Source of the DNA: a virus
Taxonomy: Duplodnaviria; Heunggongvirae; Uroviricota; Caudoviricetes
IMG/VR virus record: IMGVR_UViG_2859799533_000002
Direction: 5' to 3' (one strand)
Length of the DNA stretch: 12,984 nucleotides
Both the position numbers and the translations under genes were made by a program. The notes beneath the pieces were generated by a model. That model was not told where the DNA came from, searched no databases, and saw only the letters and a list, made by a program, of their open reading frames with translations. Below, one piece after another: positions 7,363-12,984 of the stretch. Numbering within the stretch: the stretch's first letter is position 1; each line of letters opens with the position of its first letter.

Positions 7363-8147
7363 GTTGGAGTCATTACCGAAAATCTCAATGTATTCCCGTA
7401 TTACTGAGATGGCTTCATCCCGGTTATTAAAACGATAGTGGCTCAGGCTCTCATTTTTCAGCGTTCCCCAGAAGCTTTCCATCGGAGCGTTGTCGTAACA
7501 GTGACCTTTACGCGACATTGATGTTTTCAGACCAGACTGCTCCTGTATGACCCGGTAATCGTATGCGCAGTACTGTGAACCTCGATCAGAGTGGTGGATT
7601 AGCCCGGCAGGTGGGCGCTGGCTCCTGAGCGCCATAAACAGGGCTTTACCTGTCAGCTCTTTTGTCATGCGCTCTCCCATGGCGTAGCCGACAATTTCGC
7701 ACGTATAAACATCTTTGATGCCAGCGAGGTACAACCATCCCTCCTGTGTGGCAACATACGTCAGGTACGCCACCCAGACCTGATTTGGTGCTGTAGGAGC
7801 GAACGTCTGGTTCAGCAGATTTGGCGCAACTGGCAGATTGTGGTTCGGGTTCGTAGTCGCTCTGAACTTGCGTTTCTGCTTACAGCGTAGCCTTAGCTCC
7901 TTACGAAGACGTGCCAGTCGGTCACGACCAACGATGATGCCATTCTCTGCCAGCTCCGTCTGGAGCCGCCGGGTTCCATATGTTTCGCGAGTGCGGATAT
8001 GTGCCACCTTAATCTCCAGTTTTAGCCGCTCATCACTTTGTTTTCTGTCTGAGGGTTCATGCTGTACCCAGTTGTAATAACCGCTCCTGGATACACCAAA
8101 TACCTGACACATCGCTTCAATGGGAAATTGTTGTCGCCATTGTTCGA

Positions 8148-8450
8148 TTAACGCGTATTTTTCAGCGACTCCTGTGCAAAATACGCTGTTGCTTTTTTTA
8201 ATATATCTCGCTCAAGGCGAGCTTCATTTAACGCCTTACGCAGTTGCAGAATTTCAGATTCCAGTTCAGCCACCGTGCGGGAACCAGGAGTACCGAGCCC
8301 TTTTCTGGCGGCGGTAACCCATTGTCCTAAAGTGCCTTCAGGAAGGGATAATCGGGAAGCGCCTTCACTGATCGAAAGTTGATTTTCAAGAACCGTTCTG
8401 ACAGCTTCGGCTTTGAACTCTTTAGAGTAACGTTGGTTTTTTCTGCTCAT
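8148..8450 (-). CDS. IS600 OrfA (100 aa, helix-turn-helix)
   Basis: MSRKNQRYSKEFKAEAVRTVLENQLSISEGASRLSLPEGTLGQWV...; identical to the OrfA of the second IS600 copy at 12682-12984. Confidence 0.85.
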   Translation of the reverse strand: MSRKNQRYSKEFKAEAVRTVLENQLSISEGASRLSLPEGTLGQWVTAARKGLGTPGSRTVAELESEILQLRKALNEARLERDILKKATAYFAQESLKNTR

Positions 8451-8638
8451 TATTAGCTCCTTCTGATGCCATTCTATTTCAGGAAGGAGTGTCCGTTAAA
8501 CTCAGGCTACCTCATATGTCGGGCGCTCATCCGGTATAAGGGATCGCGTTCTTAATATCAATGAAACCGCTGATGTATGGTCTGGTAATGCTGCCAACTT
8601 ACTGATTTAGTGTATGATGGTGTTTTTGAGGTGCTCCA

Positions 8639-8914
8639 GTGGCTTCTGTTTCTATCAGCTGTCCCTCCTGTTCAGCTACTGACGGGGTGGTGCGTAACGG
8701 CAAAAGCACTGCCGGACATCAGCGCTATCTCTGCTCTCACTGCCGTAAAACATGGCAACTGCAGTTCACTTACACCGCTTCTCAACCCGGTACGCACCAG
8801 AAAATTATTGATATGGCCATGAATGGCGTTGGATGCCGGGCAACTGCACGCATTATGGGCGTTAGCCTCAACACGATTTTACGTCACTTAAAAAACTCAG
8901 GCCGCAGTCGGTAA
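8639..8914 (+). CDS. insA: IS1 InsA (canonical isoform)
   Basis: [40 protein letters not shown]...; identical to InsA at 9836-10111. Confidence 0.9.
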
Positions 8915-8940
8915 CCTCGCGCATACAACCGGGCAGTGAT

Positions 8941-9336
8941 GTGATTGTCTGCGCTGAAATGGACGAACAGTGGGGCTACGTCGGTGCTAAATCACGTCAG
9001 CGCTGGCTGTTTTACGCGTATGACAGGATACGGAGGACGGTTGTGGCGCACGTCTTCGGTGAACGCACTCTGGCCACACTGGAGCGTCTTCTGAGCCTGC
9101 TGTCGGCCTTTGAGGTCGTGGTATGGATGACGGATGGCTGGCCGCTGTATGAATCACGCCTGAAGGGAAAGCTGCACGTTATCAGCAAGCGTTACACTCA
9201 GCGCATTGAGCGACATAATCTGAATCTGAGACAACATCTGGCAAGGCTGGGACGGAAGTCACTGTCGTTCTCAAAATCGGTGGAGCTGCATGACAAGGTC
9301 ATCGGGCATTATCTGAACATAAAACACTATCAGTAA
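8941..9336 (+). CDS. insB: IS1 InsB frame (InsAB' by frameshift)
   Basis: InsB homolog; the ORF-track start is downstream of the frameshift site, as expected for an InsAB' fusion. Confidence 0.85.
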
Positions 9337-9835
9337 GTTGGAGTCATTACCGTATGGTCTTATGCTTACGGTAATAATTTGCTAACTCTGTCATCAATAT
9401 ATAACCGAAGAATAATGGTTATCTGCCTGGTGTTTGGTTGCCGACAGCAGGAGGCGAGGCTATCCACCTGGGACGAATGGGATTTAAAAAACTGGGTATG
9501 GACAGTCCCAAAAGAGCACAGCAAAAACAAGGAGGCTATAGTAAGGCCTGTTCCTGACGGAATAAAACAATGGATCGTTAATCTTTACGCAGAAACAAAA
9601 AATCGCGGTTATGTTGTCGGTTGTGCTTTGCAAAGGGCGACAATAACAGGGGCTGCAAACAGAATATGCAGGCGTCTTGGTCATGATACTAATGGCTTGT
9701 GGTGCATACATGATTTCAGGCGCACATTTTCCACTACGCTTAATGATATGGGGGCGGATCCTTATATTGTCGAACTTCTTGGTGATGCTGCCAACTTACT
9801 GATTTAGTGTATGATGGTGTTTTTGAGGTGCTCCA

Positions 9836-10111
9836 GTGGCTTCTGTTTCTATCAGCTGTCCCTCCTGTTCAGCTACTGACGGGGTGGTGCGTAACGGCAA
9901 AAGCACTGCCGGACATCAGCGCTATCTCTGCTCTCACTGCCGTAAAACATGGCAACTGCAGTTCACTTACACCGCTTCTCAACCCGGTACGCACCAGAAA
10001 ATTATTGATATGGCCATGAATGGCGTTGGATGCCGGGCAACTGCACGCATTATGGGCGTTAGCCTCAACACGATTTTACGTCACTTAAAAAACTCAGGCC
10101 GCAGTCGGTAA
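9836..10111 (+). CDS. insA: IS1 InsA
   Basis: 91 aa, canonical InsA sequence. Confidence 0.9.
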
Positions 10112-10155
10112 CCTCGCGCATACAGCCGGGCAGTGACGTCATCGTCTGCGCGGAA

Positions 10156-10533
10156 ATGGACGAACAGTGGGGATACGTCGGGGCTAAATCGCGCCAGCGC
10201 TGGCTGTTTTACGCGTATGACAGGCTCCGGAAGACGGTTGTTGCGCACGTATTCGGTGAACGCACTATGGCGACGCTGGGGCGTCTTATGAGCTTGCTGT
10301 CACCCTTTGACGTGGTGATATGGATGACGGATGGCTGGCCACTGTATGAATCCCGCCTGAAGGGAAAGCTGCACGTAATCAGCAAGCGATATACGCAGCG
10401 AATTGAGCGGCATAACCTGAATCTGAGGCAGCACCTGGCACGGCTGGGACGGAAGTCGCTGTCGTTCTCAAAATCGGTGGAGCTGCATGACAAAGTCATC
10501 GGGCATTATCTGAACATAAAACACTATCAATAA
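10156..10533 (+). CDS. insB: IS1 InsB frame (InsAB' by frameshift)
   Basis: Canonical InsB sequence (..[39 protein letters not shown]..). Confidence 0.85.
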
Positions 10534-10711
10534 GTTGGAGTCATTACCGAACTTCTTTTAGGTCATAAAGTGAAAGGGGTTGCTGGTGTTTACAATAAAA
10601 GCAGGCATATAAAGAAAAAACTTGAGGTGCTTAATATGTGGGTTAATTACCTTAATACGATAGCAGGATTTAACAACAACGTTATCGAGCTTAATAAAGA
10701 GGTGGTGTGAT

Positions 10712-10969
10712 ATGGCAATTTATTCTCTTGTTGATGAAAACGATTTGCGCACAATGAAGGACATTGATCGGTTCATTCGTGAAAAAGAGTGCATAGCACT
10801 TACCACGCTGGCAAACTCAACACGCTGGAAAATGGAGCAGGCAGGTAAATTCCCGCGACGTATCAAGATCGGTGAACGTGCTGCAGGGTATCGACTTTCA
10901 GAGGTTCAGGCATGGATCCGTGGTGAGTGGCATCCTGGATGGAAACCTGGAAAAACAAAACAGCAATAA
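10712..10969 (+). CDS. alpA: AlpA-family phage transcriptional regulator / excisionase-like HTH protein
   Basis: 85 aa; ...LTTLANSTRWKMEQAGKFPRRIKIGERAAGYRLSEVQAWIRG matches the AlpA pattern (short HTH, GKFP, basic, W-R-x-SEV-x-AW); GAGG ribosome-binding site; starts 1 bp after the integrase stop. Confidence 0.8.
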   Translation: MAIYSLVDENDLRTMKDIDRFIREKECIALTTLANSTRWKMEQAGKFPRRIKIGERAAGYRLSEVQAWIRGEWHPGWKPGKTKQQ

Positions 10970-10982
10970 CCAGTAAATAATG

Positions 10983-11005
10983 CCCCTCATCACGAGGGGT
11001 TTTTT
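10983..11005 (+). terminator. Intrinsic terminator after alpA
   Basis: CCCCTC-ATCAC-GAGGGG hairpin followed by TTTTTTGTCT. Confidence 0.6.
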
Positions 11006-11025
11006 GTCTATAAGGTAAAAACGCG

Positions 11026-11604
11026 ATGAATAAAAATATTGCCGTGACGGGCAAGGGGTACGCTCGTCCAGTGAAAAAATTCTGCGATATTCGTGATCTC
11101 GTCGTTCTGCGCTTTGATAGTGTGAACGTTCGTGTGGTGTATCTGAACGGCGATCCGTGGTTTGTTGCAAAAGATGTTTGTGCTGCGCTGGAACTAACCA
11201 ATTCGCGTACGGCGTTGCAGATGCTTGATGATGATGAAAAGGGAGTAAATTTAACTTACACCCCAGGAGGAAATCAGAATATGAGAATTATCTCTGAGTC
11301 AGGTTTCTACAAACTAATAGCCCGCAGCCGCAAAGCAACGACGCCTGGCATATTTGCTCATCGTTTCAGTAACTGGGTATTCAGAAATGTGATACCAGGT
11401 ATCAGAAAAACGGGGACTTATGGTATCCCGTGGGGTGCATTACAGGATTTTTCCCGCCGTAAAGAGCAATATCAAATAAGTGCCAGCGAGAAGGGGAGGG
11501 AGCTACAGGCATGTAAGCGCAAAAAGCGTGAGCAGGAGGAAGAAGAAAAAACGCTGATACGTGAATATCAGCCTGAGTTTTACTTTGGTAACCGCATTCA
11601 GTGA
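11026..11604 (+). CDS. BRO-N domain protein (prophage antirepressor-like)
   Basis: 192 aa; N-terminal ...VVYLNGDPWFVAKDVCAALELTN...DDDEKG...IISESGFYKLIARSRKATTPGIFAHRFSNWVFRNVIPGIRKTGTY matches the BRO-N pattern; charged, Glu-rich C-terminus. Confidence 0.8.
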   Translation: MNKNIAVTGKGYARPVKKFCDIRDLVVLRFDSVNVRVVYLNGDPWFVAKDVCAALELTNSRTALQMLDDDEKGVNLTYTPGGNQNMRIISESGFYKLIARSRKATTPGIFAHRFSNWVFRNVIPGIRKTGTYGIPWGALQDFSRRKEQYQISASEKGRELQACKRKKREQEEEEKTLIREYQPEFYFGNRIQ

Positions 11605-11613
11605 CAAAACAAA

Positions 11614-11634
11614 GGCGACCGCAAAAGGGTCGCC
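11614..11634 (-). terminator. Putative intrinsic terminator for the leftward two-gene operon
   Basis: GGCGACC-GCAAAAG-GGTCGCC hairpin; on the minus strand it is followed by TTTGTTTTGT; 67 bp downstream of the 59-aa ORF stop. Confidence 0.5.
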
Positions 11635-11700
11635 AGTGGGAACAAGGGAAAACAAAAGCATCACCAACAATGCCACATTTGCGGCTGGTGGGCAATGTGA

Positions 11701-11880
11701 TCAGTCAGATTTGGTTCGTTCCAAGGTTTGCAACGAGAGCTTTTTCCTGTGCTCTTTAAGGAATTTCTCAAGAGCAAACGAACAAGGTGCGAATCTTTCT
11801 GATTCATGTTCATGCGCTATATTTTTGCGTCGTCTCTTACGAGTTGGTGATGGTGTTTTGGTTGATTCTGTGTCGCTCAT
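11701..11880 (-). CDS. Hypothetical 59-aa basic protein (not in the supplied ORF track)
   Basis: Hand translation of the reverse complement: MSDTESTKTPSPTRKRRRKNIAHEHESERFAPCSFALEKFLKEHRKKLSLQTLERTKSD*; ATG at 11878-11880, TGA at 11701-11703; AGGA about 9 nt upstream; 57 bp downstream of and co-oriented with the RHH-like gene; followed by the terminator at 11614-11634. Confidence 0.5.
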   Translation of the reverse strand: MSDTESTKTPSPTRKRRRKNIAHEHESERFAPCSFALEKFLKEHRKKLSLQTLERTKSD

Positions 11881-11937
11881 GGTGCTGTCCTGTAAAGCAA
11901 TGCGCCTGCGTTCCTCAAACTATGGCGCTGATATTGG

Positions 11938-12243
11938 CTATTCATGCTCTTTGACCTTGCGTCGCTGGAGTTCTTCACGCGCGACGGTGACGAGTTGCCC
12001 GATCTCCTCGGCTGCTTTGATGCCGATTTGTTCGACCTTAGCCAGGGCATCCAGTGACGACACAAGGGGATTTTCTCCGCTGCCTTCTGCTTGGCGGCGG
12101 GCCATTTCTCCGCGCATGGCGGTTACGATAAATCCGGCATTGCTTTCACCGTCCAGCTTAACGGATTCCATCCCTTGCATAACATCTAGTGGGACTCTGA
12201 CAGTTGTCAGTTGTGATTTTGCGTTTTTGTTAGCCGTTGCCAT
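11938..12243 (-). CDS. Putative ribbon-helix-helix (Arc/CopG-like) DNA-binding protein with C-terminal extension
   Basis: 101 aa; AGGAG ribosome-binding site 8 nt before the ATG; N-terminal TTVRVPLDVMQGMESVKLDGESNAGFIVTAMRGEMARR fits the strand-helix-helix pattern (compare Arc ...NGRSVNSEIYQRVM). Fold assignment is by pattern only. Confidence 0.55.
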   Translation of the reverse strand: MATANKNAKSQLTTVRVPLDVMQGMESVKLDGESNAGFIVTAMRGEMARRQAEGSGENPLVSSLDALAKVEQIGIKAAEEIGQLVTVAREELQRRKVKEHE

Positions 12244-12304
12244 TTCTGAAACTCCTAATCATCGGTGTGTTTCAGTATACACAAAAAAAGAAATACAAAA
12301 AGCC

Positions 12305-12342
12305 TTGACGTGTGTTTCATGCGCTCATAACATGAAACACAC
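12305..12342 (+). promoter_or_regulatory. Rightward sigma70-like promoter overlapped by a perfect 12-bp inverted-repeat operator
   Basis: TTGACG (12305-12310), 17-bp spacer, TAACAT (12328-12333); inverted repeat GTGTGTTTCATG (12310-12321) / CATGAAACACAC (12331-12342) with 9-bp spacer; a further GTGTGTTTCA half-site at 12265-12274; direct repeat GAAATACAAA at 12290-12299 and 12356-12365. Confidence 0.5.
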
Positions 12343-12433
12343 CGAAAGGATTGTTGAAATACAAAGAGCAACGCCCCGCAGTGCTGGGAACACATACGGG
12401 GCGTCTAACCAACAACGTAAACTAGGAGCCGTT

Positions 12434-12625
12434 ATGGTTGCTGTAAATCATATACCACACCTTGTACACACACAAACGGCCTTTGTGTGGCGTTTTCTGG
12501 CACTGAGTGCCGGAGAATCTCAAATCATCCACGTAACCGCCTGGACGGAACGCGAAGCGCGTAGCCGTTGCCCGTCCGGTTGTGTTGCTGTATTCGCTGC
12601 AAAAATCCGCCAGGGAGTGAGGTAG
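12434..12625 (+). CDS. Small rightward ORF of unknown function; native C-terminus replaced by IS600 after codon 61
   Basis: AGGAG 5 nt upstream of the ATG at 12434; MVAVNHIPHLVHTQTAFVWRFLALSAGESQIIHVTAWTEREARSRCPSGCVAVFAAKIRQG then VR* supplied by the IS600 terminus at 12618; it is the only well-initiated part of the otherwise implausible 354-aa ORF-track ORF. Confidence 0.35.
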   Translation: MVAVNHIPHLVHTQTAFVWRFLALSAGESQIIHVTAWTEREARSRCPSGCVAVFAAKIRQGVR

Positions 12626-12984
12626 CCTGAGTTTAACGGACACTCCTTCCTGAAATAGAATGGCATCAGAAGGAGCTAATAATGAGCAGAAAAAACCAAC
12701 GTTACTCTAAAGAGTTCAAAGCCGAAGCTGTCAGAACGGTTCTTGAAAATCAACTTTCGATCAGTGAAGGCGCTTCCCGATTATCCCTTCCTGAAGGCAC
12801 TTTAGGACAATGGGTTACCGCCGCCAGAAAAGGGCTCGGTACTCCTGGTTCCCGCACGGTGGCTGAACTGGAATCTGAAATTCTGCAACTGCGTAAGGCG
12901 TTAAATGAAGCTCGCCTTGAGCGAGATATATTAAAAAAAGCAACAGCGTATTTTGCACAGGAGTCGCTGAAAAATACGCGTTAA
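12618..12984 (+). mobile_element. IS600 second copy, left end (continues beyond the window)
   Basis: TGAGGTAGCCTGAGTTTAACGGACACTCCTTCCTGAAATAGAATGGCATCAGAAGGAGCTAATAATG is the reverse complement of the 8450-8514 terminus of the first copy. Confidence 0.9.
12682..12984 (+). CDS. IS600 OrfA (100 aa)
   Basis: Identical protein to the ORF at 8148-8450; its stop codon is the last triplet of the window. Confidence 0.9.
   Translation: MSRKNQRYSKEFKAEAVRTVLENQLSISEGASRLSLPEGTLGQWVTAARKGLGTPGSRTVAELESEILQLRKALNEARLERDILKKATAYFAQESLKNTR

Follow-up and report, generated by a model that had tools for sequence, protein, structure and literature searches.

An integrase gene cut at IS600 and split by two IS1 copies, a probable remnant of a helper-embedded satellite in a Shigella prophage region

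The stretch of DNA studied here (the window) comprises the 12,984 nucleotides of the virus record IMGVR_UViG_2859799533_000002, a sequence contained exactly in record CP026866.1; those of its sister assemblies that bear a name are Shigella boydii. Between positions 8515 and 10710 it holds the remains of a tyrosine integrase gene, which is cut at a copy of IS600 on its 5' side and interrupted by two copies of IS1. In our judgement this region is very probably the non-functional integrase remnant of a phage-inducible chromosomal island (PICI) of the helper-embedded type, or HE-PICI, destroyed by three insertion sequence (IS) events, one of which would have been a local deletion. A first-pass annotation of the window had already described a layered, stepwise decay of this one gene, and the comparison with related strains presented below bears this out. 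Two points go beyond that annotation, i.e., that the integrase belongs to a phage satellite and that the IS600 at its boundary is itself full length and hit by a further IS1.

When both IS1 copies are excised, together with one copy of the duplication that flanks each, the three integrase fragments (Table 1) join into one open frame of 213 codons, which runs from 8515 through the catalytic motifs to a TGA stop at 10708-10710. Aligned over their full length and free of gaps, the 651 reconstructed nucleotides show 100% identity to a gene that is uninterrupted in the 30 best-matching Escherichia coli genomes listed. It was covered for at least 80% in 62 E. coli genomes, and identity reached at least 99% in 63 of the 65 matching records. 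Taken separately, fragment 1 is 100% identical to positions 8001-8069 and 11001-11069 of the E. coli stretches that we designated L001 and L021, respectively, and fragment 2 is 100% identical to positions 8061-8489 of L001. The restored frame that the first-pass annotation had predicted therefore matches the intact gene completely: the alignment to intact integrases is collinear, and a frame that fails to align in this way was not encountered.

Copies of IS1 carry terminal inverted repeats of ~23 bp and the genes insA and insB, and they duplicate 8-9 bp of their target upon insertion. The two copies in the integrase gene (IS1b and IS1c) conform to this description. They are 768 bp long, possess terminal inverted repeats (GGTAATGCTGCC.../GGTGATGCTGCC... 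and ...GGAGTCATTACC), show Pfam matches to InsA and DDE_Tnp_IS1, and have E. coli matches that RefSeq annotates as 'IS1 family transposase'. Their perfect 9-bp duplications, for which the positions and repeats reported earlier proved exact, correspond to codons V221-W222-S223 (GTATGGTCT) for IS1b and E361-L362-L363 (GAACTTCTT) for IS1c; a perfect match of 9 bp has a chance of ~4e-6 per site. Both empty sites are real, that of IS1b being present in E. coli and in seven sister Shigella assemblies, and that of IS1c solely in E. coli. Since these empty sites in relatives are exact, both elements are simple insertions, as had been proposed. The position of IS1c is such that it parts the HxxR motif from the second His and the Tyr nucleophile.

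Another copy, IS1a, is nested in the adjoining IS600 at 6610-7377, where it is flanked by an 8-bp duplication (GAAAATCT) instead of the usual 9 bp. Compared with these two neighbours, IS1b is a clean mosaic: at its position 4 and from 345 to 750 it resembles IS1a at every variable site, and from 40 to 293 it resembles IS1c (26 + 42 = 68 differences). The same mosaic occurs in identical form in CP026867.1, and copies that are 99% identical occur in a few E. coli genomes. It may have arisen by gene conversion from IS1c, which lies 429 bp away, or it may represent a recombinant IS1 variant that existed beforehand; the latter is equally possible because of the copies in E. coli.

As both IS1 and IS600 are high-copy elements, and as a clean mosaic such as IS1b could come from mis-polishing, the nested pattern might be thought to be an assembly artefact created by collapsed or misplaced repeats. 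The probability of this is practically nil. The same junctions are found in ten or more independent assemblies, and the mosaic IS1b is identical in two; perfect duplications combined with exact empty sites are not expected from misassembly. Moreover, a short-read assembly of S. boydii contains a 483-bp contig that is exactly the piece between IS600 and IS1c.

The reconstructed fragment of 213 amino acids matches the Pfam family PF00589 (Phage_integrase) with E = 5e-15 and 56.1 bits (curated cut-off, 27.1 bits) over profile positions 20-168 of 172. In an alignment with box II of XerD (1a0p), the residues H340, R343, H366, and Y375 fall on the HxxR, H, and Y positions, although the E-values against PDB entries are weak (0.06-1.3). 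The assignment of catalytic residues is based on the motif pattern in combination with the Pfam match. The box I Arg, presumed to be that in GCRQQE (residues 249-254, fragment 2), and the Lys were placed by eye. The intact homologue in E. coli (WP_000963723.1; 1242 nt, 413 aa) comprises three domains, PF13356 (Arm-DNA-bind_3) at residues 7-94, PF22022 (Phage_int_M) at 114-196, and PF00589 at 234-378, and its N-terminal domain matches solved arm domains of CP4-like integrases. Judged by this domain content, the intact gene encodes a tyrosine recombinase of the P4/CP4-57 type, with predicted arm-binding, core-binding, and catalytic domains. It is followed by alpA and possesses the HxxR...H...Y signature, as do the P4/CP4-57 integrases, but it targets a prophage late gene and not a tRNA gene.

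In the window only residues 201-413 are retained. These make up the complete catalytic domain, divided over three pieces, and 48% of the protein is gone. The window copy lacks the arm-binding and core-binding domains by which its intact E. coli homologue is assigned to the P4/CP4-57 type. On the same domain evidence, this copy is a truncated derivative of a P4/CP4-57-type integrase and is predicted not to be a functional member of this group. Among the homologue clusters, frameshifted or partial forms of the integrase were assigned only to E. coli and E. albertii.

The E. coli relatives indicate to which kind of element the gene belonged. In these genomes the integrase is the first gene of an element of ~10.7 kb with the order int, alpA, Bro-N, ylcI-like, icd-like, DUF4222, primase, single-stranded DNA-binding protein (SSB), major capsid, head decoration, HTH, and terS. 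This element lies within a lambdoid prophage, whose lambda-type portal gene it splits at position 239/235 of the Phage_portal_2 profile, and is co-oriented with the late operon. The portal-int junction was found in 62 E. coli genomes, the same number as for the full integrase gene. Tommasini, Mageeney & Williams (2023; PMC10111431) reported for HE-PICIs insertion sites in gene B (portal), one of which is B:Phage_portal_2:241, and an obligate co-orientation with the late genes of the helper. The E. coli copies agree in their site (approximately profile position 235-239, compared to the published :241), in their co-orientation with the late genes, and in the published order of zones, i.e., int-alpA, Bro-N, primase, and late genes (capsid, decoration, terS). 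By insertion site, orientation, and gene order of these copies, the integrase is identified as the predicted primary integrase of an HE-PICI.

The window itself contains 2.7 kb of this satellite, consisting of int codons 201-413, alpA, Bro-N, and the ylcI-like and icd-like genes, in the same order as in the E. coli satellites and co-oriented with the prophage esterase gene to the left of IS600. Without the IS1 copies, positions 8515-12617 are 99.86-100% identical to the satellites of E. coli CFSAN018748 and MS 85-1; window 10548-12621 is 99.86% identical to positions 11480-13553 of the E. coli stretches L021 and L022. It differs from a published HE-PICI in what has disappeared: only part of the integration zone and the Bro zone remain, whereas attL, attR, the portal gene, and the replication and late zones are gone. 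The word 'Shigella' does not occur in the main text of the HE-PICI paper (PMC10111431).

In the E. coli satellite, repeated GTGTATTGCA motifs occur just upstream of int (L001 7330-7395) and near attR (L013 4700-4725); these may be the 'doubled DNA motif' that has been reported for the att regions of HE-PICIs. A short shared block, AAGGCGAT(T/G)TATG, is present at the portal breakpoints. The window also contains an open reading frame of 354 codons (11561-12625, + strand) without a Pfam match, which overlaps the icd-like gene and, on the opposite strand, the ylcI-like gene. A version of 329 aa is called in one sister annotation, but this frame is probably not a real gene.

Table 1. Location of the integrase fragments, IS elements, and adjoining prophage and satellite genes in the window.
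Feature	Position	Strand	Properties
Prophage late-region esterase (DUF1737 + SASA, nanS-p-like)	5105-6474	+	Pfam; 3' end cut by IS600; left side of the presumed deletion
IS600 copy 1, full length	6475-8514	-	IRR end at 6475, IRL end at 8514; 1264 bp after removal of IS1a
Integrase fragment 1	8515-8583	+	Codons 201-223 of the 413-codon gene; in frame directly from the IS600 end, without start codon
IS1b	8584-9351	+	768 bp; 9-bp duplication GTATGGTCT at 8575-8583 and 9352-9360
Integrase fragment 2	9352-9780	+	Codons 221-363, counting duplicated codons; presumed box I Arg and H340-x-x-R343
IS1c	9781-10548	+	768 bp; 9-bp duplication GAACTTCTT at 9772-9780 and 10549-10557
Integrase fragment 3	10549-10710	+	Codons 361-413 and TGA stop; H366 and Y375
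alpA-type regulator/excisionase	10712-10969	+	Intact, 85 aa; PF05930, E = 5e-14; PHROG excisionase/regulator
Bro-N anti-repressor-like gene ('Bro zone')	11026-11604	+	Intact, 192 aa; PF02498, E = 4e-20; phrog_2593 anti-repressor, E = 2e-84
YlcI/YnfO-like gene	11938-12243	-	Annotation of E. coli matches and PHROG
Icd-like gene	~12434-12617	+	Last few bases clipped by second IS600; annotation of E. coli matches and PHROG
IS600 copy 2	12618-12984, running off the window	+	Inverted relative to copy 1; 367-nt perfect inverted repeat with 8148-8514

The element that bounds the integrase on its 5' side, IS600 copy 1, shares 99.8% identity with elements whose annotation reads 'IS3-like element IS600 family transposase' and possesses orfA/orfB with the Pfam domains HTH_Tnp_1 and rve; its uninterrupted form is present in eight sister assemblies. 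It cuts the 3' end of a DUF1737/SASA esterase gene on its left and the integrase on its right, where the integrase frame is open from 8515, without a start codon, directly after the terminal repeat ...CTCAGGCTACCTCA of the element. The first-pass annotation had remarked upon this open frame and on the lack of a duplication at the boundary, and both observations hold. No 3-bp target duplication is present at copy 1, with flanks CTG on the left and TAT on the right, or at copy 2, with flanks GAG and CAG. Because these flanks are unpaired, neither IS600 copy is now a simple insertion, which is consistent with deletion or rearrangement. The flank on the IRR (right inverted repeat) side of both copies reads CAG in the orientation of the element (6472-6474, and 18778-18780 of stretch L006). 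These two cannot be a duplication pair, and their agreement is probably due to chance (1 in 64) or to a target preference.

How the esterase gene came to lie next to codon 201 of the integrase is the step for which different explanations have to be weighed. The first-pass annotation attributed it to a deletion of the N-terminal half; that this half is absent is certain, the window copy starting at codon 201, while the deletion is our reading of the junction. Intact E. coli composites have, in succession on one strand, Q, a variable gene slot, the lysis genes, nohD/terminase, the head-tail joining genes, the 5' part of the portal gene, and int, with Q lying 7-9 kb upstream of int. In lambdoid prophages, those of the Stx type among them, homologues of the esterase occupy the slot downstream of Q, where they follow phage tRNA genes. 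Since esterase, IS600, and truncated int keep the strand and order of the intact composites, a local deletion is the simplest explanation, and the junction probably originated in this way within one prophage-satellite composite.

Alternatively, the esterase-IS600-int junction might have resulted when IS600 copies at different loci underwent homologous recombination, through inversion or translocation, with the N-terminal half then lost or residing elsewhere. We regard this as a considerably less probable origin, although one that deserves to be taken seriously. It would fit with the second IS600, through which the remnant of the satellite is connected to cheA-cheW-tar, a long-range rearrangement given that lolE-nagK-cobB-potD-potC make up the left flank. 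It would also fit with the inversion of the IS600-bounded segment in one sister assembly, and with the four IS600 flanks, none of which pair as a duplication. However, esterase and int share the strand and order of intact composites, where Q, moron, lysis, and terminase genes and the 5' part of portal come ahead of int. In all 62 of 62 genomes it is a lambdoid portal gene that the satellite has targeted, and a lambdoid late region adjoining the integrase is what a local deletion predicts. Furthermore, the protein clusters yielded no N-terminal fragment that ends at residue 200, and their named fragment members include none from Shigella.

A number of points weigh against the local deletion. 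The deletion itself is not directly observed, and no relative was found in which an esterase-bearing prophage and the satellite are both intact. None of the E. coli genomes inspected combines an esterase-type prophage with the satellite, and the three helper prophages examined carry other genes in the slot downstream of Q. The failure to find a relocated N-terminal half ending at residue 200 among protein homologues and cluster members comes from an indirect search, confined to protein clusters. On its other side the remnant is joined by IS600 to cheA, which normally lies far from the potD/potC side, and the active recombination between IS600 copies at this locus could build an esterase-int junction from two loci.

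This other side is itself rearranged. The full IS600 copy 2 differs from copy 1 at 2 of 1264 positions, and beyond it the source record continues with cheA-cheW-tar. Here cheA follows directly after the element (L006 18778 onward), without motAB or flhDC in between. The cheA junction is a long-range rearrangement mediated by IS600, and it accords with Shigella having lost flagellar genes. A single inversion, a replicative intramolecular transposition, and the insertion of a composite transposon were each considered for the two IS600 copies and rejected, as no flank triplets pair. In a composite transposon the segment 8515-12617 would have moved as a unit, with the integrase already truncated. 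The near-identical inverted IS600 copies that bracket the segment, with their left inverted repeat (IRL) ends inward, have the appearance of such an element, but the outer flanks (CTG left, CAG right) are not a direct 3-bp duplication and the regions on either side (prophage esterase and cheA region) are not contiguous in any relative examined. In all assemblies the IS600-int'-IS600 structure occurs at this one locus alone. A transposon of this kind is, therefore, extremely unlikely.

The sister assemblies provide a view of the order in which the gene decayed. The IS600-int junction and the IS1 at 9781 are common to every sister assembly that retains the region; one of these, CP049281, is S. 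boydii strain 600657, and NCBI lists the 160-aa fragment from between IS600 and IS1c under the name S. boydii. No match to the IS600-int junction was obtained among the GTDB species representatives. Seven sister assemblies have an empty site at 8575-8583 and an uninterrupted IS600, and the IS1 at 8584 and the IS1 inside IS600 occur only in CP026866.1 and CP026867.1. Strains lacking one of the insertions in the integrase gene, which the first-pass annotation had suggested for comparison, thus exist. Stepwise decay follows from this distribution, the IS1 at 8584 being confined to two assemblies and the junction and IS1c being shared by all that still have the region. The relative order of the IS600 event and IS1c cannot be set; an attempt to order them by means of a 130-aa open reading frame ending in IS1c showed that the truncated integrase accompanies IS1c in every full-length locus returned.

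Further changes distinguish individual strains. In CP026867.1 a deletion of ~3.6 kb adjacent to IS1b has taken away all sequence from int codon 224 up to a point 340 nt into the second IS600 (L009 14247/14248). In PTES01000002.1 and CP026795.1 a deletion of 661 bp adjacent to IS1c has removed the tail of int, alpA, and the start of Bro-N (L003 and L011, 13891/13892). These deletions start exactly at the right ends of IS1b and IS1c and are typical IS1-adjacent deletions. In CP026762.1 (L016 5614-11467, corresponding to the window from 6475 to past its end at 12984) the IS600-bounded segment is inverted relative to its flanks, so that the order reads cheA-side IS600, int', ..., IS600, esterase. 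This inversion shows that recombination between IS600 copies is active at the locus. The decay is layered and ongoing.

Taking a local deletion as the origin of the junction, the history of the locus may be envisaged as follows. An IS600-associated event would have joined the prophage esterase gene, cut at its 3' end, to integrase codon 201, thereby removing the arm-binding and core-binding domains. Some 6-8 kb would have been lost along with these domains, comprising the lysis genes, the terminase genes, and the 5' portion of the portal gene. Either recombination of two direct IS600 copies or an adjacent deletion would have this result, and the sequence does not discriminate between these two routes. 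An IS1 inserted into codons 361-363, before or after this event. Later, in one sublineage, IS1 entered codons 221-223 and a further copy entered IS600. The second, inverted IS600 would have removed the replication and late zones of the satellite and joined the remnant to the cheA region.

The part of the window to the left of the esterase gene has also been affected by IS elements. A fourth IS1 (1336-3307) is interrupted by an IS2 of 1331 bp (~1954-3284), and beside the left end of IS2 some ~128 bp of IS1 that the sister strains possess are missing from the source strain. A lambda-type integrase (Arm-DNA-bind_1 and Phage_integrase) lies at 1-1119 on the minus strand and adjoins potC in the sister loci. 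It is parted from a DNA methylase gene (3150-4325, + strand) solely by the IS1::IS2 pair, which suggests that the whole early region of the prophage has been deleted as well. Upstream of the esterase gene, at 4366-4615, there are three phage-borne tRNA genes with the anticodons CAT, TCG (Arg), and TCT (Arg). The CAT tRNA is called Met by ARAGORN but annotated as tRNA-Ile in homologous E. coli prophages. This arrangement resembles that of Stx-type prophages, but between the tRNA genes and the esterase gene, where the latter carry the stx genes, no stx gene is present here.

Every component of this case is of a known kind (IS1, IS600, a P4/CP4-57-type integrase, and an HE-PICI), and it represents ordinary IS decay for Shigella. 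IS1, IS2, and IS600 are among the five IS that have expanded in all Shigella species, the reference chromosomes hold 229-348 IS each with IS1 as the largest contributor, and dense, strain-variable IS insertion and pseudogene formation are a documented hallmark of these bacteria (Hawkey et al., 2020; PMC7373316). The variation of insertion sites from strain to strain observed here is like that described in the same study and the mechanism is no different, although the layering is unusually dense, with four IS1, one IS2, and two IS600 in 13 kb. One could imagine that the invertible block bounded by IS600 has been kept in many S. boydii strains because alpA, Bro-N, and the ylcI-like gene still act on lambdoid phages, whether resident or incoming, for instance through anti-repression or interference, leaving the integrase, for which there is no further need, free to decay. 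These three genes are intact and ~99.9% identical to those of active-looking E. coli satellites, which is the sole argument for this idea, but two sister strains lack alpA and part of Bro-N, and we consider it very unlikely.

The locus is a cleanly resolved and ordered example of gene decay driven by IS elements, with an intact, ancestor-like sequence at hand for each step. As markers of lineage, one could use the strain-variable IS1 insertions, the deletions next to them, and the IS600 inversion. Novelty, of a modest degree, lies solely in the point that an orphan 'partial integrase' is a relic of a satellite embedded in a portal gene. This explains an annotation that would otherwise stand alone, and it matters little beyond annotation. 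It also indicates that a helper-embedded satellite known from E. coli was once resident in the lineage of these Shigella strains, the named ones of which are S. boydii.

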